From NCBI GenBank assembly GCA_964430355.1, contig CAYSFW010000089.1, forward strand, positions 147,750 through 211,749: DNA of 64,000 nucleotides. Direction: 5' to 3'. The DNA is from an uncultured Thiotrichales bacterium (GTDB lineage: Bacteria; Pseudomonadota; Gammaproteobacteria; UWMA-0217). Position numbers and translations under genes: made by a program. The stretch's first letter is position 1. The number at the start of each line of letters is the position of its first letter. Below are positions 13,407-34,872 of the stretch, piece after piece. The notes beneath the pieces are model-generated. The model saw nothing but the letters and a program-made list of their open reading frames with translations. It had not been told where the DNA came from and made no database searches.

Positions 13407-14144
13407 TTAGCGCTGGGGCGATGCTTCCTGCCGTCTCGCGGACCCGTTGAGCCGCGCCGCGCCCAGCATGCCGAGCAGGCCGGAGGAGAACAACCACAGC
13501 GCGGTAGGCACCGGAACCGGAGTAGGCGGGCTCGCAATCTGGGCCAGCACTTCGTAATGGTGGAAGGCATCACCTGCCACGCTGGCGATGTTGACGAACG
13601 CGAAGTCGCGATACACGTACGGGCCGACCTCGTTGTTGAAGAAGTTCCAATTGAAACTGAGCAGCCCCCCGGAGGCCGCCGTGATCACGAACCGCAAGAG
13701 GGAGCCATCGGTTCCGGCCGCGCCGTTCGCATTGGTGTAGTCGCTGGTTGATGTGCCAGTGCCGATCATACGCAGCATGTGGCTACCCTCCGTCGGCGCA
13801 GCGCCAAAGATCGGGGCGTTGAGTACGCTCGTCCAGCCCAAGGTCGAGTACCCGACCGTGGTGCCGGTCTCGAAACCGCGGTTACCGGCTGCCGCGCCAA
13901 AGCCTACGGTGCCGCCGAGGTTGTCGATCAGCATCTCGGGATCGGCGAGCGTGTCTCCTTGGTTGCTCAAACCGATGGTGACTAGGGCGTCGAAGGTCTT
14001 GTCTGTCGGGAGATTGATCGTGAATGTCTGCCAGCCCGTCGACGGGCTGGTGACGAACTGGGTGGCCGCCAAACTCGGAACACTGCTGAATGTAAGAGTC
14101 GCACCGAGAGCGGCGGTTATCGCCTTGCCAAACGCAACTTGCAT
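13407..14144 (-). CDS. Secreted protein with PEP-CTERM/VPLPA-CTERM-like exosortase sorting signal
   Basis: Signal peptide ending SLA|A; C-terminus PVPVPTALWLFSSGLLGMLGAARL..RR; GGAGGT RBS. Confidence 0.75.
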   Translation of the reverse strand: MQVAFGKAITAALGATLTFSSVPSLAATQFVTSPSTGWQTFTINLPTDKTFDALVTIGLSNQGDTLADPEMLIDNLGGTVGFGAAAGNRGFETGTTVGYSTLGWTSVLNAPIFGAAPTEGSHMLRMIGTGTSTSDYTNANGAAGTDGSLLRFVITAASGGLLSFNWNFFNNEVGPYVYRDFAFVNIASVAGDAFHHYEVLAQIASPPTPVPVPTALWLFSSGLLGMLGAARLNGSARRQEASPQR

Positions 14145-14864
14145 CGCCTACCTCCCCATAGCGGACGCGTGCGTGAGCGTCCGTCTGTTCGTCTTGACCA
14201 ATAAGCCCGAAATATCTTGTTTTTGCGTGCGCTCATGCGCAGCCTATAAGTTGACTGTAAGCGCGAGATACTTAGCGTGCATGCCGACTACATAAAAGCG
14301 AGAGCCAGTTCACAATTTTCGAGCGCTTTTCTCTCCAGCCGGTTTATCGAGCCGACAAAGTCGGAACCCCTGGTGCGTAATCCCTGCAGCGCGAGCCCCT
14401 CCTACCTACTGGGATTCGGGAGCGCATTCACAAATCCGAAGCGAACGTCCAGAGCACGCGCAGTTCGCAGCTGGATTCATGCGTCAAACGGACTATCCTA
14501 GTTCCCGATGGTCGGCGCTTGATTCCGGATGAGCGGAGTTGCATCCGACAGCAAGCATATTGAATGCGGCTCTTGATGCGGAAGGGTAGCAGCCTAGCGG
14601 TTGCTAGACAGGCCATAGTTTTTAACGAGTTAGCTGCGGAACCTTTGATTGCATATTGCGTTTAATGTGCAATGTGCTAAAGTTGGTTTAAGTGCATCAT
14701 CAGAGGACACGCTGAGGTGTGTCCGGGTAGGTACGGTGGGCGGGTTGGCGTCGAGGGGCAAGCGGGCGCGGAAGCCACGACTGGGAGGTACTGCCCGAGG
14801 TGCTTGGAGCCGGAACGGCTGCTCGCAACACAGACAGGTCAAAGAAAGCGGAGACGATTCAGTC

Positions 14865-17800
14865 ATGCGACAAAAACACATTAACCATGCCGTGCGCCGT
14901 GCCATGACGGGCGCGGCGTTTGCGACGGCCTCACTGGCCTTGGCCGCAGGCGCACCCGCGGCCCGCGCAGCGGGGGGGTGCCCGGCGGACCAGACGCCTG
15001 TCGGACCCAACCTAATCAAGAACGGGTCTTTTGCCACCGCGATTGCGAATCCGAAGCCTAACTCATTTTTACCAGCGGGCACGGATCTGAATGACTGGAC
15101 AAGCGGCGTGCCGTACACGGGACTCAACCGTTACCCGCAGGATTTTTCGGACGCCAATGACATCGGCACGGGCGGTTCGGGCGTCGCCGTCATGAGCGGT
15201 CATTTCACCGGCGGGCTGGAAAGCGGGGTCTATCTACTCGACCAGATAGCGTTCCCGGGCGATACGGTGAACGGCGTGCCCGCAGCGGCCAACTGGCTTG
15301 CCTACGGCGGTAAGACGAGCACGGCGCCCGTGCCGTCACTGATCTGGAGCCAGGCAGTCAGTGGGCTGGACACCAATTCTGATTACGTCATGTTTGGCTA
15401 CGCGTCGAACGTGGTTAACCCGCCGTATCAGGGGACAACGGTTACGGGGCTTCAGGTTGTTCCGCCCAAGGTAGGCTTCAGGCCGCAGCTGAGCGGTGCG
15501 TTGCTTGGTGCAGTGACGGTGTGTGATAACACGATCACGCCGACGGGCAGTTGCGCTGCTGCGCTGAGCGACGTTTGGAAGCGGTTTGAGTTCACTTTCA
15601 AGCCGACGGCAGCGAATCTTACTCTCCAATTGCTGGACGATCAGATTCCCGAGGTCAACGGCAACGACCTGGCGATGACGCAGCTCAGCCTCTACAAGTG
15701 CCAACTGAGCGAGGCGGGCATCACCTTTCAGCCGGTCCTGCTGAGTTTTGGTGACGTGCGCATCCCCGCATCCAAGGAGCTGACCGTCACGATCCGCAAT
15801 GCCGGTAATGTGGCGCTCAACAACCTCGCTTTCTCGATACCGGCCGGGACGAACCTGACCGGGGCGTTCGCGCTGGGCACGATGGGCAGCGCAACGCCGC
15901 ACTGTGGCACGACGCTCGCACCGGGTGCGACCTGTACGGTTCCGGTTATTTTCAACACGAGCGCGTTCAACGCCGACACCGGCACGGGCGAGAAGCTCGG
16001 CAAGTTGCAGGTCACAGGGACCGGTATCGGTAGTGCGACCTCGACCTTCCTGCTAGACCTTCGCGGTACCGCCACGGCCGGACCGCCGAAGCTGAGCGCG
16101 GACAAGTCATCGCTCTCCTTCGAAACGGCGATCAACACCGCAAGGTCCGAGGTGGTGACGGTCACCAACACGGGCCAGCAGACGCTGCGAATCTCTTCGG
16201 TCGTGCTCGGCGCGGGTTCGGACTTCACGTTGGGTGGCAACACCTGCTCCGGCGCAGACCTCGCGCCCAATCAGCAGTGCTCCGTGACGGTCAATTTCGC
16301 CCCAACGACGACGGGCGAAAAATCCGGCACGCTGACGATCGCCTCGAACGACCCCGAAGGCGCGACCAAGACAATCACCCTGAGCGGGCGGGCGCTCAGT
16401 ACGTTGCCAGCAGACGTGGATACCGACGGTGACGGCCTGACCGACAATCAGGAGGCCATCATAGGCACAAATCCGAACAACCCTGATACAGACGGCGACG
16501 GCATCCGCGACGGGGTGGAGGTCGGTCCGGACGTCAATAAGCCGAAGGACACCGACGGCGACCAAATCCCCGACGCACTGGAGCCCAATGACGTCGATAC
16601 CGACGGAGACGGATTCGCCAACTACAACGATCCGGACGACGACGGCGACGGCATTCCCACGAAGAACGAGGACGCCAACGGCGATGGTAAGCCGTGGAAC
16701 GACGACTACGACAAGGACACCATCCCGGACTACCTGGAGAATAACAACTGGGATACGGACGACGACGGCAAGCCGAACTGGCAGGACAACGACGATGATG
16801 CCGAAGGCGGACCCACCGGTGTCGATTTCGTCTACGGCGAGGCTGGCCCTGACTACTGGCGTCCGTGGGGCTCCTGCGACATGAACGGCAAGGTGTCGGT
16901 AAATCCCAACCAGGCGGACGACAAGGACTGCATCCCGGACTACCTCGACGCCGACGAGACCAACCGCGCCGGCATGGCCGATGGGACGGGGGATTCGGAC
17001 AGCGACGGCTATTCCGACAAGGCGGAGTGCCCAAGCTTCCCGGCCAATTGCCCGGATGAGAATAAAGATGGCACGCCGAATTACATGCAGAAGCCGAACC
17101 CAGTGCTGACCGGCCTACAAGGCGGCATCGGTGGTGGCGCGGCGGGTCTGCCGTGGCTGGCGGTGCTCGGCGGTGCGCTGCTGTTTCGCCGTCGTAGGGC
17201 GACGCAGTCGGCAATGCCGGCGCGCCGTCGCCTCCCACTCGCGGTTGCCGCAGTGGTCGCGGGTTCCCTGAGCCTGGGCACGGATGTCCAGGCCGAGCCA
17301 GGCCAGTTCTACATCGGCGCGGGTGCTGGCCAGTCTCGACTGGAACCCGACACCAATGGAACGTCCTTTTTCGTCGATGACAAGACCGATATCGGATACA
17401 AGCTGTTTTTCGGTTATGACATCACCAAGCTCTTCGGCGTCGAGGCGTTCTATTCAAAGCTCGGACAGGCGGGCATTGGCGCGCTGAGTCCATACCGTGG
17501 CGGCGAGATCGACTACAACATGTATGGCATCGGCGCCGTCGTGAACTTCCCGCACAACGGCCCCGGGGCTTCGCTGATCGGCAAGATCGGTGTGGCGGGC
17601 ATGGACAACGACTCCGACTCCGTGCCGTACAGGAAGGTGGAGGATGTCCAGATCTACGGCGGCGTAGGCGCGGAGTACCAGTTCAAGCACGGGTTTTCTG
17701 CCCGGGCTGAGTACGAGTACTACGACGAGGACGCCCAACTTGCCTCCATCAGCTTTGTAAAGCGTTTCGGCGGCAAGCCTACGCCCGCGCCGGTCGTTGC

Positions 17801-18230
17801 CCAACCGAAGCCGGCGCCTGCGCCGGCCGCGGCTCCACCAGCGCCGCAGCCAGTGACGCCGGAGGTCATCGAACGCTTTAGCGGCGTGCTTGACGGCGTG
17901 AACTTCCATTTTGACTCGGATCGCCTGACCAATGAGGCAATGCGCATCCTCGACGGCGTTGCTGCGGAGATGGCCCAGTACCCGGAGCTGAAGGTCGTGA
18001 TCGTCGGGCACACGGACAACATCGGTACGCCAAGCTACAACAAGGATCTTTCACTGCGGCGCGCGAAATCCGTCGCGCGTTACATGCTCTCCAAGGGTAT
18101 CGACGCGAGCCGGATGCGCTACGCCGGCATGGGTGAGGAACAGCCGCGTGCATCAAACGCGACGAAGGAAGGCCGCGACCAAAACCGCCGCGTTGAATTC
18201 ATCGCTCACGACGGAACCCAAGGGGCCTAA
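14865..18230 (+). CDS. Large surface protein: signal peptide, jelly-roll/CBM-like domain, two Ig-like (choice-of-anchor D/ASH-like) domains, TSP3-like Ca-binding repeats, GlyGly-CTERM-like segment, second signal peptide, OmpA beta-barrel and OmpA C-terminal peptidoglycan-binding domain
   Basis: Start ATG 14865 ([35 protein letters not shown]). DxDGDG repeats; [26 protein letters not shown]; OmpA-C motifs [17 protein letters not shown] and NRRVE. Confidence 0.8.
16413..17090 (+). repeat. Thrombospondin type-3-like Asp-rich Ca2+-binding peptide repeats
   Basis: Repeated DTDGDG(L/I/F)xD, DxDxDxIPDYL units in translation. Confidence 0.8.
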
Positions 18231-25810: not shown

Positions 25811-25913
25811 CTGTAGCGGGCGGTCGGGCCGATCGGTCATGATCTACTGTGTGGATTGCCGCCCGGGCTTCTACCGCGGCGGCTGACCGGCCTCACATAC
25901 AAGGTTGCGCACC

Positions 25914-28259
25914 ATGTCCATCCAACTCGAAGACTACGCTGAACTGCTGGAGGGGCTCTCCGAGCACAGTCAGGCCGCGCTGCTTGCCAATTGGCACGAA
26001 GCGACGAAGACGCTCTCGCCGCGGGGGCTCGACAACTATCTCAAAGGTGTGTCGGCTATCCGTGGACTCGGTCGGGGAGATTCGCTGGTGGAGACCTGGA
26101 TCGAGCAGGCTCCGATGGTGGCCAAGGAGGTAGGCGAGGATGTGGTGAGCGATCTAGCGACGGCTTCGCTGATGCTGGCCTCCAAGACATCCGGCGCAGT
26201 CATCGAACTGCTGCTGGCCACCGCACCGACCGCTGCCAACCGGCTGGGCGATGCCGAGCTGTTCCGCAAGTACCTGCAGTTTATCAATACCCTCATCGCG
26301 CAGGCACCACGTGGCGTGCGCCCGATGCTCGACAAGCTCGAGGTACTCTTTCAGAACCTCACCCTCGGTGGGCTACGCCGCTGGGCGATGTGGGGCGCAC
26401 ATGCCCACCGCACGAATTACGAAGAGCAGATCAAGTACTTTGGACTGGAGACCAAAGAGTCTCTGGCGATGCTGCAAAAGGAACGCAAGGGAACGCTGCT
26501 GGTGGACGTGCAGCGGCGCATCAACATGTACCTGCGCGCGCTCTGGGCGCGGGACTTTTTCATGCGGCCCACGGCGGGTGACTATGAAACGCGCGAGGGT
26601 CTCAAGCCCTACATCGAGGATTACCTGCTGCACCTGCCGGATGCCTACGATGACTTTGCGCCCGAGGGCCACGAGGCCGTTCCGGGGCTCGAGCTTTACC
26701 GCGCCGCAGCTGCGCACTGCGCCGCGCACGTGGTCGAAACGCGCCAGCCGATCTCCGCAGAGGGACTCAATCCGATGCAGATGGCGGTCATTTCGGCCAT
26801 CGAGGATGCGCGCGTCGAGACCCTGTCCGTACGCCGCTTTCCCGGGTTGAAAGCGCTGTGGCGCAAGCTGCACGTTGTCACACCGGAGCGCAGTGCCAGC
26901 ATTGGCGATTATCTGGACCGGCTGGCCCGCGCGCTACTCGACGACACCTATCGGGACGACGACCCGTGGATCATGCAGGGTCGGGAGCTTTTCACGAAAG
27001 CTATGTCGGAAAATCGTCTCGGCGACAACCGCACGTCCTGGGAAATTGGTGTGACGCTAGCGCACACGCTCAAGGATAAGGGCATCGCCTTCAATCCGCG
27101 CAAGGACGTGCTCTCCGCCCCCTACCGCGACGACAATCGTTACTTCTGGGAGTTTCAGGAATTCGACTTCGAAAAGGCCGCAGCCGCGGGCTACGAAAGG
27201 GTCAAGCAGGTACGCAAGTACGTGACCCTGATGGAAATGGTCAACGAGGTCGACAACGAGCTGGCCTCCGACGACGCGCAGGAGATCTGGGTGCTGCCCA
27301 CCGAGTTCTACCTCGACCAGGAGGGTGTGACCATTAACTCTCTCGAGGGTAAGGAGCCCGTTTCCGAGCCTGTGCACTATGCGGAGTGGGATTACCAGAT
27401 CCAGCTCGAGCGTCCGGCGTGGGTGACGGTGTACGAAAAGCGCGCGAAGCTCGGTGACCTGCAGCTCATCAACGACATCACCAGTCAGTACAAGCGCGAA
27501 ATCTACCGCATGAAGTTTCTGCTCGATGCGATGCAGCCCCAAGGTGTGCAGCGTATCCGCAAACTCGAGGATGGTGACGAGATCGACATCAACGCGGCCA
27601 TCGTCAGCTTTACGGACATCCGTCTCGGCAACCAGCCCGACCCGCGCATCATGATGCGCAGCGTGCGCAAGACGCGCGACTTTTCCATTCTGGTGCTGCT
27701 CGACCTCTCCGAGTCCACCAATGATCTCGTACAGGGACAGGATTACTCCGTGCTTGACCTCACGCGCCGTGCCTGTGTGTTACTCAGCGACGCCATTAGC
27801 AAGGTCGGCGACCCGTTTGCCATTCACGGCTTCTGCTCGGATGGCAGGCACGATGTGGAGTACTACCGCTTCAAGGACTTTGACCAGCATTGGGATGAAG
27901 AGCCCAAAGCGAAACTGGCGGGGATGACCGGTCAGCTCTCCACGCGCATGGGCGCGGCCATTCGCCACGCAGGGCATCACCTGAGGCTGCAGCGTTCGGC
28001 CAAGAAGCTATTGATCGTCATTACCGACGGGGAGCCGGCCGACATCGACGTGCGCGATCCCCAGTACCTGCGCTACGACACCAAAAAGGCGGTTGAGGAG
28101 GTGGGTAAATTTGGGGTCGTCACGTACTGCATGAGCCTCGACCCGCGAGCCGATAACTATGTCAGCCGCATCTTTGGGCAAAAGAATTACATGGTCGTGG
28201 ACCACGTACAGCGGTTGCCCGAGAAGCTCCCGCTCTTGTACGCTGGTTTGACGCGTTGA
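25914..28259 (+). CDS. cbbO: Rubisco activase adaptor, vWA-domain protein
   Basis: C-terminal vWA with MIDAS (LLDLSES...STRMGAAIRHA...TDGEP); follows cbbQ. Confidence 0.93.
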   Translation: MSIQLEDYAELLEGLSEHSQAALLANWHEATKTLSPRGLDNYLKGVSAIRGLGRGDSLVETWIEQAPMVAKEVGEDVVSDLATASLMLASKTSGAVIELLLATAPTAANRLGDAELFRKYLQFINTLIAQAPRGVRPMLDKLEVLFQNLTLGGLRRWAMWGAHAHRTNYEEQIKYFGLETKESLAMLQKERKGTLLVDVQRRINMYLRALWARDFFMRPTAGDYETREGLKPYIEDYLLHLPDAYDDFAPEGHEAVPGLELYRAAAAHCAAHVVETRQPISAEGLNPMQMAVISAIEDARVETLSVRRFPGLKALWRKLHVVTPERSASIGDYLDRLARALLDDTYRDDDPWIMQGRELFTKAMSENRLGDNRTSWEIGVTLAHTLKDKGIAFNPRKDVLSAPYRDDNRYFWEFQEFDFEKAAAAGYERVKQVRKYVTLMEMVNEVDNELASDDAQEIWVLPTEFYLDQEGVTINSLEGKEPVSEPVHYAEWDYQIQLERPAWVTVYEKRAKLGDLQLINDITSQYKREIYRMKFLLDAMQPQGVQRIRKLEDGDEIDINAAIVSFTDIRLGNQPDPRIMMRSVRKTRDFSILVLLDLSESTNDLVQGQDYSVLDLTRRACVLLSDAISKVGDPFAIHGFCSDGRHDVEYYRFKDFDQHWDEEPKAKLAGMTGQLSTRMGAAIRHAGHHLRLQRSAKKLLIVITDGEPADIDVRDPQYLRYDTKKAVEEVGKFGVVTYCMSLDPRADNYVSRIFGQKNYMVVDHVQRLPEKLPLLYAGLTR

Positions 28260-29109: not shown

Positions 29110-29322
29110 GCTACCATAAACGGGCCATTGTCAAATGTCTTGATGAGCCCGAGCTGTGAAGCTTGTCCGCAATACTTGTCACTCGCTACCGAACCAAGAC
29201 GGGCTCTGCCTGTTTCTGGGCGAGGGCGGAGTCAACGTCGCCGAGCGCCTCGAGCCTCAGGGGCGTGAGCCGCGTGGTGTCCCGGGCACACCAGCTGGCA
29301 CGGCCGGGAGGAGGAGGGGAGC

Positions 29323-31005
29323 GTGCCGGTCTTAGCCCTATTGCTCCTCGCCTCACCGCTGGTATCGGCTGTACTCATCACGCTACTGGCTGGTCGGCTG
29401 GCAGACCGCAAACCTATTATCGCGCGAGTGAGCGTCGGCTGCGCGTTGCTCACCAGTCTCGCCGCCAAGGGTATGCTGGCGATGAGGGTGCTCAATCAAG
29501 AAGCACAGACCGTCGATGCAGGGCTGGGCGATCTCTATCTGGATCCCCTGGCTGGCGTCATGGTCGTCGTCGTGGCGGCCATCAGTCTCGTGGTGCATAT
29601 CTACTCGGTCCGCTACATGGCAGAAGAGGCTGGATATGCGCGCTTTTTCGCGCTGCTCGACCTGATGACCTTCACCATCCTGCTGATGGTCACAGCAGGG
29701 GATCTCATCACCTTGCTGCTTGCCTGGCACCTCGTGGGCGTGCTGCTGTACTTCCTGCTCGGTCACGATCTGCAGCGCGCCGAACCACAGCGCTACGCCT
29801 TGCGGGCGCTGATCACCTACCGGCTCGGTGACCTTCCGTTGGTCCTTGCGGCACTGCTGCTGTACGACGCCTATGCGACGCTGTCGCTGCCGGATCTGTT
29901 TGCGCGGGTGGCCGCGGCGCCCCTTCAGCCGACCGTATTCGATCTGCCCATCGCACCTACGGTGGCCCTGCTCGTCGCGCTTGCAGCCTTTGCCCGATCG
30001 GCACAGGTCCCCCTGCACATCTGGCTACCCTACACAATGGAAGGGCCGACCCCGGTTTCTGCCCTTATGCATGCTGGTATTGTCAATGCCGGCGGTTATC
30101 TGCTCAACCGCTTCGCACCAGTTTACGTCCATGCCGGTGAGGTGTTGCACCTGGTGTTTGCCGTTGGTCTGATCACGGCCATATTGGGGTCGATGCTCAT
30201 GTTGACGCAGAACGACGTCAAAAAGGCGCTGGGTTACTCGACGATGGGGCAGATGGGCTTCATGTTTGTAGAGGTCGGGGTAGGGGCCTTCTCCCTTGCC
30301 ATCTATCACCTGATTGCGCACGGTTTGTTCAAGGGCACCCTGTTTTTGGGGGCAGGTGGCGTCATCGGTGAGGCGCGCCGGGCCGATGGCGTGCCTCACG
30401 ACGAGGTGTACGCCTTCGTGGTCCAGAAGCGACCGGCGGCGTCCAGGCTACCTTGGCTGCTGGCGGCGGGTATCACGGTCGTCGTACCCCTCTTGTTGCT
30501 GGGCTTGACGCGATGGCTGCTCGGTGGTGGCTTCGTCGGTGAGCAGGGCGCCATCATCCTGCTTTTTTTCGGTTGGGTGACTGGCGCCCAGTTATTGTTC
30601 GCCACCCACCGCCTCGAGGCCGAAAATCCCTGGCGGGTGATGGGCCTGAACATCCTCTCCCTCGCCGTCGTCGTCGCGGGCTACACGTTCATGGAACACG
30701 CCTTCGGGTACTTCCTGTACCCGGACAGAGACCTTGCCGAGGCGCTGTACGCGGCGGCGAGTATTCCGGCCCCCGTCTTTTATGGGCTGGTGGCGGTCGT
30801 CACGCTACTGATCGTGCTCGGTTGGATCGGGACGTTCTACGGCATGGCCAGTCGTGGTGCACGGACCGAGGAAACCTCGCGTCTGCGGCTCGGCGTTTAC
30901 TCGCTCGTATCCCGCGAGTTCTACGTTGCCGACCTTCACGACTGGCTGACGCGATCTCTGCTCGCTGTGTCGCGGCGGCTGAACTTATGGTCGAGGTGGA
31001 TTTGA
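29323..31005 (+). CDS. dabB: DAB/DAC inorganic-carbon pump membrane subunit (NuoL/MrpA-like)
   Basis: ARSAQVPLHIWLP, EGPTPVSALMHAG, KKALGYSTMGQMG, HLIAHGLFKG; upstream of a DUF2309 gene. Confidence 0.85.
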   Translation: MPVLALLLLASPLVSAVLITLLAGRLADRKPIIARVSVGCALLTSLAAKGMLAMRVLNQEAQTVDAGLGDLYLDPLAGVMVVVVAAISLVVHIYSVRYMAEEAGYARFFALLDLMTFTILLMVTAGDLITLLLAWHLVGVLLYFLLGHDLQRAEPQRYALRALITYRLGDLPLVLAALLLYDAYATLSLPDLFARVAAAPLQPTVFDLPIAPTVALLVALAAFARSAQVPLHIWLPYTMEGPTPVSALMHAGIVNAGGYLLNRFAPVYVHAGEVLHLVFAVGLITAILGSMLMLTQNDVKKALGYSTMGQMGFMFVEVGVGAFSLAIYHLIAHGLFKGTLFLGAGGVIGEARRADGVPHDEVYAFVVQKRPAASRLPWLLAAGITVVVPLLLLGLTRWLLGGGFVGEQGAIILLFFGWVTGAQLLFATHRLEAENPWRVMGLNILSLAVVVAGYTFMEHAFGYFLYPDRDLAEALYAAASIPAPVFYGLVAVVTLLIVLGWIGTFYGMASRGARTEETSRLRLGVYSLVSREFYVADLHDWLTRSLLAVSRRLNLWSRWI

Positions 31006-31006
31006 G

Positions 31007-31750
31007 ATGGCAGCGCTGATTGCATCCGGCCTGTTCCTGTCGCTCTACCCGCTGAGCGTCGTTTTGGGTGCGGTACATGCCCGCACGCGCTTGCCCGTCG
31101 CTCGCTTTGCCTTGCTGCTGCTCTGGCCTCAACTTGGCGTGTTGCTGGTGAATGTGGGGGCGACTCCCGTTCCCCAATGGCTAGTGGCTTGGGCGTTGGC
31201 GACTTCTGGATTCTATGCCCTGCGATTACTCACCGTCCGGGAACTTGCGCGCTACGCCGCCACATTCGCCGCATCCGCAGCGCCACTGGCCTGGGGACTA
31301 GCCGGAGGCGGTGCGGATACAGTGTCTGTTTCCCTATTTACGCTGTCGCTGACGCTGCCGATCGCCATGCTCAACCTACTCGAGGGCGCGATTTCGCGGC
31401 GTTTTGGTGCCGCCCATGCTTCGGTCAGTGTCGGCCTGGCCAGCGCGGCCCCGAGACTGGCCACGATGCTGTCCCTCGTCGTGCTGGCAGCAGCGGCGAC
31501 ACCGCCGTTTCCCGGCTTTTTCGCTATGCTGGCTCTGCTAACCCACCTGGAATGGCCAGCCAGTCTGGCCGCCCTCGGCATCTGGTTCATTTGGGGCTGG
31601 GCAGCGGCCGGTCTGTTTAAGCACCTCGTCGCTGGCTTGCCCCGTCAGGACAACGTCGACGATCTGAGCGTTAGTGCGAGTTGGCTGTCGGCCAGCGTGC
31701 TGACGGCGATGGCTTTGGCCACCCTTTATCTGGCGGGGCCAGTCGGATGA
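31007..31750 (+). CDS. Small antiporter-like membrane subunit of a three-component DAC
   Basis: Highly hydrophobic; TPPFPGF motif resembling the NuoM/N C-terminal half; translationally coupled to both neighbours. Confidence 0.65.
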   Translation: MAALIASGLFLSLYPLSVVLGAVHARTRLPVARFALLLLWPQLGVLLVNVGATPVPQWLVAWALATSGFYALRLLTVRELARYAATFAASAAPLAWGLAGGGADTVSVSLFTLSLTLPIAMLNLLEGAISRRFGAAHASVSVGLASAAPRLATMLSLVVLAAAATPPFPGFFAMLALLTHLEWPASLAALGIWFIWGWAAAGLFKHLVAGLPRQDNVDDLSVSASWLSASVLTAMALATLYLAGPVG

Positions 31751-34700
31751 TGATGACCTCAAGCCCGTCCGCGACCCTTACACTCGGCAGGCGGCTCGGC
31801 ATCCGCAGTATCGTGTATGTCGCTGGCGAGGCCATTCCCTACTTCTGGCCGATGCGGACCTTCATCCACCACAACCCGCTGCACGGGCTTGAGCATCTGC
31901 CGTTCCACGCTGCCGTGGCGGAGGGCGAACGCTTGTTCCATGGCCAGGGCTACCTCAACCGAACGGCGTACCGGCGCTACCTGAAGGAAGGCCGGCTCTC
32001 GCGGGCGGACCTTGAGGTCCAGGTCGAGCGCTACATCGCGTCACGTCCCCCCCTTTCCGGCATCGACGCGCACGCCTTGCTAATGGAGAGGTTGATTGGG
32101 TCTGCGCCATCCCAGGCAGGGAATCTTGCTCTTGCGGACGCAGCGGACGTGCGCGCCGCGCTCAACCGCGCGCGCTTGCCGACCCGACACGTCGACGTGG
32201 CCACCCAAGTACTGCCGCTCGTATCCGGAAAACGTCCCCTCTACGAGGCGGTCGACCTGTTGTTCGGCACCGAGATCGGCGCGACGCTCGACGAGTTGGT
32301 GGTAAAGGGCTGTCTGGACTTCTTCGACGAAGGCCAGTCAGCTTGGCGCATGCCTGGCCGGGAACAAGGCTTGTTTCGCGCATGGAGTGCGGTGGCGCGC
32401 CACAACCTGCGCCTGTTCATCCGCGGGCTGCACATCCAGCGCATTCTGCAGGCCGCCGACTCGCCCGAAGGGGTCATCAGCCACGTGCTGAGCGAGTTGG
32501 GCATACCGGAGGAGCGTTGGGTGGACTACTTCGCCGCGGAGCTCACGCGACTGCACGGCTGGGCAGGCTTCATCCGGTGGCGATCGGCAGCGAAGACCTA
32601 CTTGTGGAGCCGTCATCACCCCGCGGACCTGACGGATTACCTCGCAATCCGGCTCGTGCTCGGGTTGGTCCTGCTTCGCGAGCATGCGGCGCGTGCGCAA
32701 ACACCGGGCAACCTACCCGCCCTGCGCCAGTTCGTTGAAGCGCATCCAGAAGAGGCTTACCTACGGCTGGAGTTTCACACGGGGCGGGTGATCCCCGCGC
32801 TGGCGCATGCGGTGGAGGACGCAATCGCCACGCCGCGGAGCGGGCGCCTGCGGCGACTCATGCCGGAGTACCTCGCCAGCAAGCGCGCGCAAGAGGCAGG
32901 GCAGCTTGCCGAGGGTCTGATAGCTCTGGCTGGACCCTCAGGGCAGCGACAAGCTCTTGCAGGCCTGGATGTCGAGTCGCTTGGTATGTTGCTGAGCCTG
33001 CTCGAAGATTTCTCACGCGTGGAAGGCGCCGTTTGGCTAGAGGCCCACGAAGCGCACTTCCGCCGCGAGCTCTTAGGTCGCCTCAGCCTCGCGCTGCCTC
33101 CGCCACGGGCCAAGCGTCCCTTTGCACAGGCGATGTTCTGCATCGACGTGCGCTCCGAGAGGATTCGGCGCCACCTGGAGCGCGTGGGCGATTACCAAAC
33201 GTTTGGCATCGCCGGCTTCTTTGGTATTCCGATGAGCTTCATCGGCCTGGACAAGGGCAGTGAGACCCAACTCTGCCCGGTGGTCGTGACCCCAAAAAAC
33301 GTGGTGTTGGAGTTGGATATCGCCCGCGCCAAAGATCACGACGCATTCATCTCGGTGCTTGAGCACGTGTTTCATGACCTGAAGGCTTCGGTGCTGTCGC
33401 CCTACATCACTGTGGAGGCCATCGGTCTGTTGTTCGGGCTGGACATGTTCGGCAAGAGCTTTGCGCCTGCCGTGTATAACCGCTGGCGCAGCCGCCTGCA
33501 TCCGCAGAAGACCGACAGCCGGCTCCTGCTCGACAAACTCTCCCGGGAGCAGGCCGATTCCATCATCCGCGCGCTGCAGCGGGCCATGATTGTCAAGGCG
33601 GTTACGCGCGAGCTTGGCATCCGACGTGAGGCGATCACCGACGAGATGATTCGCGAGCTGCGCGAGACGGCGCTCTGCAACCGCGAAGGGCCGAGCCGCC
33701 TGGCAACAGCGTTCAAGCTCGAAGCCGAGGTCGAGGCTCGGTTCATCCAGCGCTTGCGCGAGGTCTACCGCGTGGACCGTGGCTATGCACAGATCCAAAT
33801 GGAGCGCCTCGGGCGCATCGGTTTCAGCCTCGAGGAGCAGATCAACTACGTCGTACTCGTTCTGCGCTCGATCGGCCTGACCCGAGGGTTCTCCCGCTTC
33901 GTTCTCGCAGTGGGCCACGGCAGCCGCTCGGAGAACAACCCCTATGAGTCGGCACTGGACTGTGGCGCCTGTGGGGGCAACCACGGACTGATCAACGCAC
34001 GGGTACTTAGCCAGATCGCCAACAAGCCCGCGGTCCGCGAGGGACTGCGCCGACACGGCATCGACGTGCCGGACGACACCTGGTTTGTGCCCGCCCTGCA
34101 CAACACCACGACCGACCAGATTGTGCTGCATGATCTCGACCTGCTGCCCCCGAGTCACCTGGTGTACCTGGACCGGTTATCCAGCGGGCTTGAGGCAGCC
34201 TCCCGCCTCAGTGCCTGCGAGCGATTGCCCGCGCTAGCTTCGGTCACGCACCCCCTTGCCACTGAGAGGGCTTACCGAGTTGCTTACACCAACGCCTTCG
34301 ATTGGTCGCAGGTCCGGCCGGAGTGGGGGCTCTCGCGCAATGCCGCCTTCATCATTGCCAGACGTCAGGTGACCGAGCAGGCGGACCTGCAAGGCCGGGT
34401 GTTCCTGCATTCTTATGACTATCGTTGTGACCCCAAGGGCCGGTTACTTGAAAACATCCTTGCCGGTCCCCTCGTCGTAGGGCAGTGGATCAATCTGGAA
34501 CATTATTTTTCGGTCGTAGACAACGAGCGTTACGGCAGCGGCTCCAAGGTCTATCACAACGTTGCGGGTCGCTTCGGCGTCATGACCGGAAACCTGTCCG
34601 ACCTGCGCACCGGGCTGCCGGCCCAGACCGTACTCAAGGACGGACGGCCCTTTCACGAGCCCCTGCGGTTGCTCACGGTCATTGAAGCGCCATTCGAGCA

Positions 34701-34872
34701 GGCGCGAAAGGCCGTCGAGGGTGTGGCAAAGGTCAAAGGCCTCGTGCGTAACGGGTGGGTGCACATGGTCATCGTGGATCCGGAAACGGGCGAGGTGCGC
34801 CGCTACACCGAGGGATGCTGGCAGCGCGAGACGCTCGGCGAGTTCACCCCGTCACAGGAGTCTTTGCCATGA
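31747..34872 (+). CDS. dabA: DAB/DAC soluble subunit (DUF2309, beta-CA-like)
   Basis: FIHHNPLHG, FCIDVRSE, GHGS, ALDCGACGG Zn-ligand motifs, WSQVRPEWGL, HNVAG...GN. Confidence 0.92.
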   Translation: MMMTSSPSATLTLGRRLGIRSIVYVAGEAIPYFWPMRTFIHHNPLHGLEHLPFHAAVAEGERLFHGQGYLNRTAYRRYLKEGRLSRADLEVQVERYIASRPPLSGIDAHALLMERLIGSAPSQAGNLALADAADVRAALNRARLPTRHVDVATQVLPLVSGKRPLYEAVDLLFGTEIGATLDELVVKGCLDFFDEGQSAWRMPGREQGLFRAWSAVARHNLRLFIRGLHIQRILQAADSPEGVISHVLSELGIPEERWVDYFAAELTRLHGWAGFIRWRSAAKTYLWSRHHPADLTDYLAIRLVLGLVLLREHAARAQTPGNLPALRQFVEAHPEEAYLRLEFHTGRVIPALAHAVEDAIATPRSGRLRRLMPEYLASKRAQEAGQLAEGLIALAGPSGQRQALAGLDVESLGMLLSLLEDFSRVEGAVWLEAHEAHFRRELLGRLSLALPPPRAKRPFAQAMFCIDVRSERIRRHLERVGDYQTFGIAGFFGIPMSFIGLDKGSETQLCPVVVTPKNVVLELDIARAKDHDAFISVLEHVFHDLKASVLSPYITVEAIGLLFGLDMFGKSFAPAVYNRWRSRLHPQKTDSRLLLDKLSREQADSIIRALQRAMIVKAVTRELGIRREAITDEMIRELRETALCNREGPSRLATAFKLEAEVEARFIQRLREVYRVDRGYAQIQMERLGRIGFSLEEQINYVVLVLRSIGLTRGFSRFVLAVGHGSRSENNPYESALDCGACGGNHGLINARVLSQIANKPAVREGLRRHGIDVPDDTWFVPALHNTTTDQIVLHDLDLLPPSHLVYLDRLSSGLEAASRLSACERLPALASVTHPLATERAYRVAYTNAFDWSQVRPEWGLSRNAAFIIARRQVTEQADLQGRVFLHSYDYRCDPKGRLLENILAGPLVVGQWINLEHYFSVVDNERYGSGSKVYHNVAGRFGVMTGNLSDLRTGLPAQTVLKDGRPFHEPLRLLTVIEAPFEQARKAVEGVAKVKGLVRNGWVHMVIVDPETGEVRRYTEGCWQRETLGEFTPSQESLP

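Follow-up and report, generated by a model that had tools for sequence, protein, structure and literature searches.

A predicted adhesin–OmpA polyprotein with an internal sorting-tag-like element in a Thiotrichales-like gammaproteobacterium, and its fused and split relatives

Can one bacterial reading frame encode two envelope proteins, an adhesin that carries a sorting tag and a complete OmpA, and have them separated after export? This question is raised by a gene at 14865–18230 on the forward strand of a 64,000-nucleotide stretch of DNA (the window, to which our coordinates refer) from an uncultured Thiotrichales bacterium (GCA_964430355.1, contig CAYSFW010000089.1, positions 147,750 to 211,749). 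An earlier reading of the letters without database searches (the sequence-only reading) had described the product as an adhesin followed by an internal GlyGly-CTERM anchor, a second signal peptide and OmpA, split by signal peptidase I and rhombosortase. Comparison with relatives leads us to consider it likely that the fused gene encodes a genuine polyprotein, threaded through the inner membrane as a hairpin and cut by signal peptidase I and a sorting protease into two partner proteins. Since the same layout recurs in many bacteria, the gene is probably a real polyprotein and not an error.

A single open frame on the plus strand extends from 14649 to 18230, with the stop codon at 18228–18230; in the open reading frame (ORF) listing of the window it is read from a TTG as 1193 amino acids (aa). 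The likely start codon is ATG 14865, from which translation yields 1121 aa with a normal signal peptide at the N-terminus. A Shine–Dalgarno (SD)-like GGAG lies at 14850–14853 (+), 11 nucleotides (nt) 5′ of the ATG, and the corresponding anti-SD duplex (−6.6 kcal/mol) ranks highest among the candidate starts tested. In this organism start codons can hardly be judged by SD strength, because the starts of uvrD (10940) and glyQ (18422) have almost no SD complementarity (−1.5 and −3.9 kcal/mol).

Hydropathy reveals only three hydrophobic segments in the 1121 aa, namely the N-terminal signal peptide and two at the junction between the adhesin part and the OmpA part. The first junction segment is the middle of an internal tripartite tag (17106–17198, +), delimited by hydropathy and NCBIfam scores, in which GGIGGG is followed by the hydrophobic span and then by RRRR. 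An Arg-rich loop of 15 aa (17187–17231, +) contains seven Arg and no Asp or Glu. It is a predicted cytoplasmic turn, and is predicted to be the basic tail of the tag and the n-region of a second signal peptide at once. The h- and c-regions of this internal signal peptide occupy 17232–17294 (+), with a hydropathy peak of 2.09 and a predicted signal peptidase I site V-Q-A|E at 17294|17295. On inspection, n-, h- and c-regions and the V-Q-A|E site are all discernible, but the signal peptide is internal. Within the loop there is an in-frame ATG (17214–17216, +) with a weak SD (−4.4 kcal/mol, 14-nt spacing). The sequence-only reading had placed the tag stretch at 17121–17198, the ATG at 17214 and VQA|EPGQFY at 17294|17295, and these peptides and the codon are where it put them; its claim that the frame reads through the tag into the second signal peptide and OmpA agrees with the DNA at 17000–17420 and with the translation.

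A stop codon or indel at the junction, which would have told against the sequence-only reading, was not found. Four metagenome runs from two studies, which sampled hot springs and microbial mats, have Logan contigs that match positions 16900–17500 with zero substitutions, indels or joints at a word depth of about 6–21; the junction is intact and identical in these four independent assemblies. The identical 1121-aa protein is also on record from an independent assembly (P0001). A promoter and terminator scan found no site at the junction, no excess over shuffles and no promoter-like site 5′ of ATG 17214. As a separate observation, the 38 bases at 17289–17326 also occur, with 2 mismatches and with flanks that diverge on both sides, in a second contig in runs X1–X3. 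Judged from its sequence, this contig carries an OmpA paralogue whose mature N-terminus is the same and whose signal peptide differs.

The OmpA module behind the predicted cleavage site is complete, as the sequence-only reading had it: Pfam, NCBIfam, AlphaFold and Foldseek agree. It consists of an 8-stranded OmpA-type β-barrel at 17295–17771 (+; PF13505 3.4e-15, PF01389 4.3e-8), a Pro/Ala-rich periplasmic linker at 17772–17879 (+), which has lower pLDDT in the AlphaFold2 model, and an OmpA C-terminal peptidoglycan-binding domain at 17880–18212 (+; PF00691 1.1e-23). Positions 6–339 of the 358 in the NCBIfam ‘porin OmpA’ model align to aa 794–1116, starting from within the second hydrophobic segment, and where this segment aligns the model holds OmpA's own signal peptide. 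The AlphaFold model of aa 733–1121 has a confident OmpA_C domain and a confident 8-stranded barrel that begins 3–4 residues past VQA|E (strands at segment residues 82–237, pLDDT >85). Full-length E. coli OmpA is the top Foldseek match for the module; TMt values are 0.71 (1bxw) and 0.75 (9fzc) for the barrel, and 0.8–0.9 for the C-terminal domain against the C-domains of Pal, OprF and OmpA.

Is the fusion peculiar to this one genome? The sequence-only reading had named the same stop-free architecture in other genomes as a point to check, and we find it in three syntenic lineages. One relative, P0121 (locus L001, from a Thiotrichales metagenome-assembled genome), is 64–68% identical and its junction is likewise read straight through, ...RTGLDGGVRGGAMGLPLLSLLAGGLWYRRKRTEAKPVPKRPKGLLGLICAAVLASSLAIGPVDTVQA|EPGQFY, with VQA|EPGQFY identical in the two proteins. 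As in the window, the gene is followed by glyQ-glyS. The linker in the loop differs (ATQSA in the window, TEAKP in L001) while frame and length are kept, and in-frame indels occur in the loop and signal region. A second assembly of the L001 species (L002), the sole relative returned by a genome-contig scan, agrees on the read-through. The third lineage, represented by P0241 (L013), shares the order uvrD...X...glyQ-glyS with the window. Its loop consists of RRRK only, the next codon is GTT, and no codon that could serve as a start occurs before the hydrophobic core, where initiation would leave no n-region. The OmpA module in L013 is exportable only as part of the fusion. The same locus has a second fused gene just 5′ of uvrD (2803–5691 of L013). 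In it, leucine-rich repeat, fn3 and TSP3 passenger domains lead to ...SIGGGSAGMGIALGGLLGLMRKRRK-LLATAAAVTPLLLASGLADA, after which about 50 aa of charged linker come before barrel and OmpA. Several such polyproteins, with differing passengers, can therefore coexist in a genome.

The wider family was collected by searching the junction profile (tail, tag, signal and barrel) against 1.84 billion cluster representatives at 50% identity, which gave 2129 matches; the family counts below refer to the best 150 of these 2129 representatives plus the window protein, 151 sequences together. Three other searches brought no fused relatives: a metagenome-contig scan with the junction profile gave zero relatives, a profile search with a 28-sequence junction alignment gave nothing at E≤1e-15, and a whole-protein homologue search was dominated by choice-of-anchor D matches with zero fused relatives shown.

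In 91 of the 151 sequences the barrel begins more than 120 residues into a protein of 439–2813 aa, and 87 of these 91 fused proteins (the window protein and 86 others) have two hydrophobic segments directly 5′ of the barrel. The loop between the segments has a median length of 6 aa and a median net charge of +4, values that a hairpin turn on the cytoplasmic side would be expected to show. At least two Lys or Arg are present in 85 of the 87 loops, 46 loops are no longer than 6 aa, and Met occurs in 7 only. In many members one Arg cluster doubles as the cytoplasmic tail of the tag and the n-region of the next signal peptide. The second segment ends in [AV]-x-A in 56/87, the barrel starts at most 12 residues past it in 72/87, and it aligns with ordinary N-terminal signal peptides of 60 stand-alone relatives from the same list. 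A TG(L/V)xGxG-like motif stands 5′ of the first span in 62/87. When the 86 extracted tags were compared with NCBIfam, 28 matched GlyGly_CTERM, 20 MYXO-CTERM, 11 JDVT-CTERM (best 5e-12) and 7 SVAGG GlyGly-CTERM, so that internal matches to GlyGly-CTERM, which the sequence-only reading had suggested looking for with a hidden Markov model, do occur. The window protein fits the family definition, with two spans, a short positive loop and an OmpA-type barrel inside a long ORF. Database names of the fused proteins are ‘OmpA family protein’ or ‘choice-of-anchor D domain-containing protein’.

To which class does the tag of the window protein belong? ‘Textbook GlyGly-CTERM’, as it was called in the sequence-only reading, is too strong. 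TIGR03501 (GlyGly-CTERM, cut-off 15.5) gives 15.9 bits on the isolated 37 aa and 14.9 bits on a 49-aa piece, and is unreported for the tag in its 100-aa context or in the full-length protein. TIGR03382 (GC_trans_RRR, cut-off 15.85) scores higher, 20.0 bits on the isolated 37 aa, and falls below threshold (14.2 bits) in the 100-aa context. TIGR03901 (MYXO-CTERM) reaches 14.5 bits against a cut-off of 20, and JDVT-CTERM (NF033191) has zero match, its Cys and DP motif being absent. There is no Cys between aa 740 and 810, i.e. the invariant Cys of MYXO-CTERM is missing; because of the absent Cys the tag is of neither the MYXO nor the JDVT type. Moreover, 343 residues follow the RRRR tail, so it does not stand at the extreme C-terminus where a GlyGly-CTERM is placed. 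Its scores and layout describe a sorting-tag-like tripartite element of uncertain class, borderline GlyGly-CTERM.

Stand-alone relatives of the OmpA module show what the two halves look like as separate genes. In all six loci examined (6/6), a large gene with a true C-terminal tripartite tag lies directly 5′ of the OmpA gene. The cargo tag in L006, ...LQTGLKGVGGCALNPNASFDPVLLLMLLGAPLYLFRTRRR...*, scores 42.7 bits with JDVT-CTERM (cut-off 27); the gap to the OmpA gene is 33 nt, and an MrtJ (100 bits, cut-off 75) is encoded at the locus. In L007 the cargo tag is of the JDVT type as well (39.2 bits), cargo and OmpA genes overlap in a TAATG stop/start, and MrtJ (111 bits) is found in L008, which has the same neighbourhood. 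The L011 cargo has a Cys-less Gly-rich tag without class assignment and adjoins the OmpA gene, with an MrtJ of 92 bits (cut-off 75). In L009/L010 the unclassified tag ...ATGLKGAGSGGPLLLGALALIAALRRRGGGN* is separated from the OmpA gene by 64 nt and a rhomboid is encoded three genes downstream. In the cultured Leucothrix pacifica (L014, GCA_003172875.1) a Gly-rich tag with 19.2 bits to GlyGly_CTERM (cut-off 15.5) precedes the OmpA gene (P0130) by 14 nt, and in L015 an unclassified tripartite tag precedes it by 49 nt; no sorting protease was seen in the locus listings of L014 and L015. MrtJ is thus nearby in 3/6 split loci and a rhomboid in 1/6.

The barrel of P0124, a verified split gene, is 59–60% identical to fused proteins. 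A crude neighbour-joining/Fitch count gives about 30 changes between the fused and split states, and some of the ‘stand-alone’ entries entering it may be truncated gene calls. Taken by gene order and similarity, the fused gene is one form of a two-gene module, tagged cargo plus dedicated OmpA, whose forms interconvert, and the module is, on the same comparison, found widely in Gammaproteobacteria. The sequence-only reading would have fallen if homologues were always two genes; the fused form occurs in 87 cluster representatives, and the split form exists too.

Two split loci deserve a remark of their own. In L009 (6001–9529; L010 is alike) the genes for OmpA, a 326-aa protein without family match, a 250-aa protein whose end weakly resembles a J-domain, and the rhomboid follow one another. 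The best match of this 228-aa rhomboid is rhombosortase, at 37 bits far under the cut-off of 84. The cassette may be a distinct rhombosortase-like sorting system. In L011 (3065–7663) the MrtJ-type CPBP protease adjoins a cargo and OmpA pair whose tag, TTGVTGSGGSVSFLSVGLLGLLGGFFGRRQGRQ, has no cysteine, unlike the clients of MrtJ and MrtX, which are described with an invariant lipidated Cys.

How would such a protein be processed? From the layout we infer cleavages, topology, surface location, stoichiometry and the identity of the protease as follows. The N-terminal signal peptide would start Sec export of the passenger with its lectin-like, Ig and TSP3 domains. The hydrophobic span of the tag would then act as stop-transfer and be held in the inner membrane with the Arg cluster in the cytoplasm, and the second hydrophobic span would restart export as an internal signal peptide, giving a hairpin. 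A cut by signal peptidase I after V-Q-A would free a 311-aa OmpA-like protein, to be inserted in the outer membrane by the β-barrel assembly machinery and to bind peptidoglycan. The passenger would be left on the hairpin until the tag is cut by an intramembrane protease, either rhomboid/rhombosortase-like or CPBP/MrtJ-like. Cleavages of this kind are on record: rhombosortase cuts after the GlyGly motif of VesB in surface display that depends on the type II secretion system (PMC13393428), and the MYXO-CTERM of TraA is cut by myxosortase (PMC11980579). Internal LPXTG and archaeosortase tags have been processed experimentally (Navarre & Schneewind 1994; Abdul Halim 2017, as cited in PMC11980579).

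Of the processing scheme in the sequence-only reading, the polyprotein, the hairpin and the signal peptidase cut gain from our comparison, through the conserved fusion, the loops, the alignment of the second segment with signal peptides, the tags and the split forms. Rhombosortase as the second enzyme does not, given the borderline tag and the lack of this enzyme in the window and at the five fused loci inspected. Neither does the proposal of a surface adhesin in 1:1 ratio to OmpA. Among the transmembrane-rich ORFs of the 64-kb window there is no sorting protease; they encode a CDP-alcohol transferase, a DabB-like protein, CitMHS, SulP and one protein with four transmembrane segments without assignment, and no rhomboid is among the multi-transmembrane ORFs. 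Beside the fused genes of L001, L003/L004, L005, L012 and L013 there is none either. Because a sorting protease is absent both from the window and from beside these five distinct fused loci, the enzyme could equally be of the MrtJ type.

This absence is also one of several points that weigh against processing into two proteins as we propose it. The window tag is borderline for every curated tag model and lacks the Cys that the MYXO and JDVT types require. After the signal peptidase cut, the tag would still be tied to the second span, a shape that rhombosortase or MrtJ may not accept. The loop has a start codon in the window (ATG) and in L001 (GTG), so some independent translation of OmpA is conceivable. 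The hairpin has no confident AlphaFold structure (pLDDT <50), which neither favours nor disfavours helices.

Several of these points would be accommodated if the hairpin were an anchor and no sorting took place. In such a protein, signal peptidase I would free the OmpA and the uncut hairpin would anchor the passenger in the inner membrane, facing the periplasm. The lack of a sorting protease in the window or beside the five fused loci and the sub-threshold score of the tag in context are compatible with a plain anchor, as are the TSP3 repeats, which are also found in periplasmic linkers of related OmpA proteins. We nevertheless regard it as unlikely, for many family tags pass curated sorting-tag models (JDVT-CTERM down to 5e-12), the split relatives carry bona fide C-terminal tags, three of them near MrtJ and one near a rhomboid, and the TG(L/V)xGxG motif found before the span in 62/87 would be superfluous for a mere anchor.

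A second possibility is that the genes are nested: OmpA would be made mainly from ATG 17214 (GTG in L001), and the read-through would be a tolerated by-product of a lost stop. The window ATG does correspond to a GTG in the L001 alignment, and a signal peptide begun at either codon would carry a basic n-region (MPARRR and (M)PKRPK). The split relatives demonstrate that the two parts can be made separately. An SD that is weak or absent (−4.4 and −1.9 kcal/mol), with no promoter-like site upstream, speaks against internal initiation, but is not decisive, since the housekeeping genes of the window also lack a strong SD. It is the family that makes nested genes quite improbable. Judged from the window and L001 alone, where an ATG aligns with a GTG, an internal start would be conceivable. 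The loop of L013 passes from RRRK to GTT, and its first possible start, in the hydrophobic core, would give no n-region; Met is found in only 7/87 loops, 46/87 of which are no longer than 6 aa. That the frame has stayed open in 87 diverged clusters is an argument for a use of the fusion as such. The internal start at 17214, which the sequence-only reading had offered as an alternative, is accordingly disfavoured. Finally, an artefact or pseudogene, in which an assembly or sequencing error or a recent stop loss joined two ordinary genes without function, could draw on the unconserved linker (ATQSA/TEAKP) and the scarcity of chance stops in high-GC DNA, but is extremely improbable in the face of an identical junction in four assemblies from two studies, in-frame indels in the loop and signal region, and fusions in three syntenic lineages and 87 diverse cluster representatives; for an assembly artefact as such, the four independent assemblies and the orthologues rule it out.

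The passenger itself looks like a sugar-binding adhesin. Its N-terminal Sec signal peptide (14865–14969, +; hydropathy peak at aa 13–33) ends before AGGCP, and homologues have cleavage-type sites immediately 5′ of the conserved GCP motif. An N-terminal lipoprotein was considered and rejected: Cys aa 39 is the conserved disulfide Cys of GCP, it follows ARA|AGG, and there is no lipobox. The first 250 mature residues have zero Pfam or PDB sequence matches. They form a jelly-roll domain at 14970–15719 (+) with conserved Cys close to both ends, modelled by AlphaFold2 at pLDDT 74 and pTM 0.77. Foldseek relates the model to CBM16, CBM4, CBM6 and sugar-binding proteins (E about 1e-5, TMt 0.5–0.64), and we assign it with moderate confidence, from the model, as a jelly roll resembling carbohydrate-binding modules (CBM). 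The domain is common to P0241, P0244, P0245, P0247, P0249, P0253 and P0254. Two Ig-like domains of the choice-of-anchor D / HYDIN-VesB-like kind follow at 15735–16388 (+; NF012200 with PF22073, PF22544 and PF15780); NF012200 (choice-of-anchor D) scores 96.2 bits across two stretches, above its cut-off of 45. Asp-rich bacterial TSP3 (calcium-binding) repeats at 16407–17099 (+; PF18884 TSP3_bac) lead up to the tag, and this region is strongly conserved between the window protein and P0121.

If the polyprotein is real, it is a natural and widespread case of a Sec substrate whose translocation halts and resumes before cleavage yields two proteins of the envelope. By definition GlyGly-, JDVT- and MYXO-CTERM are terminal signals, and curated models search for them at the C-terminus; here the same tags are internal in at least 87 representatives. 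Annotation pipelines would then under-count tagged proteins by labelling fused genes ‘OmpA family protein’. A clade of OmpA would be tied to tag-dependent surface display, and the TraA/TraB idea would be extended beyond myxobacteria. The single gene gives experiments a direct handle: cleavage is predicted at two sites, and EPGQFY would be a diagnostic N-terminus. A broader proposal is that a dedicated OmpA partner is an overlooked general third component of Gram-negative C-terminal sorting, across GlyGly-CTERM/rhomboid, JDVT-CTERM/MrtJ, MYXO-CTERM/MrtX (TraAB) and LPXTG/PdsO, repeatedly welded to its cargo as a polyprotein in which one Arg cluster serves both tag and signal peptide. We put this forward tentatively and think it rather doubtful in its full generality. 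Were it true, the fusion would oblige an adhesin and its peptidoglycan-linked docking protein of the outer membrane to be inserted together and delivered 1:1.

Other genes of the window provide some context for the organism. The neighbour gene at 13407–14144 (−) encodes a 245-aa secreted protein with the tail PVPVPTALWLFSSGLLGMLGAARL..., which is weakly PEP-CTERM-like (XDP1 E=0.0034; THxN E=0.015). The source organism probably also runs an exosortase system, as this tail suggests. At 29269–34872 (+) a DabB-like proton-antiporter subunit (29269–31002) and DabA (31681–34872, PF10070, 865 bits) form an inorganic-carbon uptake pair, which fits a chemolithoautotrophic Thiotrichales-like organism of hot-spring mats. 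Between them a 255-aa ORF with four transmembrane segments (30983–31747) is without assignment. A 784-aa ORF at 25905–28259 (+) has zero Pfam matches at E≤1e-5.

How does the window protein compare with known systems? The nearest precedent is MXAN_5598 of Myxococcus xanthus, in which an outer-membrane barrel and OmpA domains come after an internal MYXO-CTERM, a layout termed an ‘atypical configuration’; the authors read it as a fusion of two genes and proposed that the N-terminal part is processed and surface-anchored (PMC11980579, mBio 2025). By this published description the two proteins share one ORF with a large adhesin region, an internal tripartite tag, a barrel and an OmpA cell-wall-binding domain. 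They differ in that MXAN_5598 has a Cys-containing MYXO-CTERM, MrtX and a host in the Myxococcota, whereas the window tag is Cys-less and Gly-rich and belongs to a Thiotrichales-like gammaproteobacterium. That paper treats one atypical protein only and does not mention a second signal peptide, a hairpin or a wider family (PMC11980579). The precedent lessens the surprise, and the family turns a single anecdote into a widespread, directly testable phenomenon.

The split relatives are closer to the outer-membrane exchange proteins of M. xanthus, TraA (lectin-like, with repeats and MYXO-CTERM) and TraB (with an OmpA domain), which are encoded by ORFs that share 4 bases (PMC3325183). The layout is the same, including the TAATG overlap in L007. 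Unlike the window protein, TraA and TraB are two polypeptides, and TraA has a PA14 domain where the window protein has a CBM-like jelly roll with choice-of-anchor D. The NCBIfam TraB model (NF033763) gives the window protein 78.3 bits, in the OmpA_C region only, against a cut-off of 700, and because of this difference we regard it as an analogue, not an orthologue, of TraB.

With GlyGly-CTERM/rhombosortase (PMC3237569, PMC6219818, PMC13393428) the window protein shares the Gly-rich motif, the single span, the Arg tail, a gammaproteobacterial host and a VesB-like Ig domain. The known tag stands at the extreme C-terminus, whereas the window tag is internal and borderline, and no rhombosortase was found in the window; the founding GlyGly-CTERM description of 2011 mentions neither OmpA partners nor internal tags (PMC3237569). 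JDVT-CTERM/MrtJ (bioRxiv 10.1101/2023.06.07.544157) is represented by 11 fused members and by two split cargos above cut-off, with MrtJ adjoining or near split modules. It has been described as a pair of cargo and MrtJ, without mention of OmpA or internal tags (bioRxiv 10.1101/2023.06.07.544157), whereas here an OmpA gene lies in between or is fused to the cargo. In the PdsO cassette (PMC11580497), too, the gene of an OmpA-like protein accompanies those of a sorting enzyme and the one target of this enzyme, but the target is of the LPXTG type, the enzyme is a sortase and the genes are separate. By curated score the window protein is not a PdsO orthologue (54 bits, cut-off 152).

We found no description of three elements of this system: the combination of second signal peptide and hairpin; a family of this breadth, in which gammaproteobacterial members have tags of the GlyGly and JDVT types; and the regular position of an OmpA gene beside tagged cargo and MrtJ. 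A signal peptidase cut at an internal signal peptide of a bacterial membrane polyprotein is reportedly known from FbcH, the cytochrome b-c1 polyprotein of Bradyrhizobium japonicum. FbcH is unrelated to the window protein; both of its products are said to stay in the inner membrane, and no sorting tag is known to take part. Secretion of the passenger through the barrel, as in an autotransporter, was considered and rejected because the barrel is 8-stranded. Autotransporters (type V) do resemble the window protein in carrying passenger and β-barrel in one polypeptide. Unlike their 12-stranded barrel, which exports its own linked passenger, the 8-stranded barrel of the window protein has no such pore, and it is accompanied by the predicted hairpin, the second signal peptide and an OmpA_C domain.

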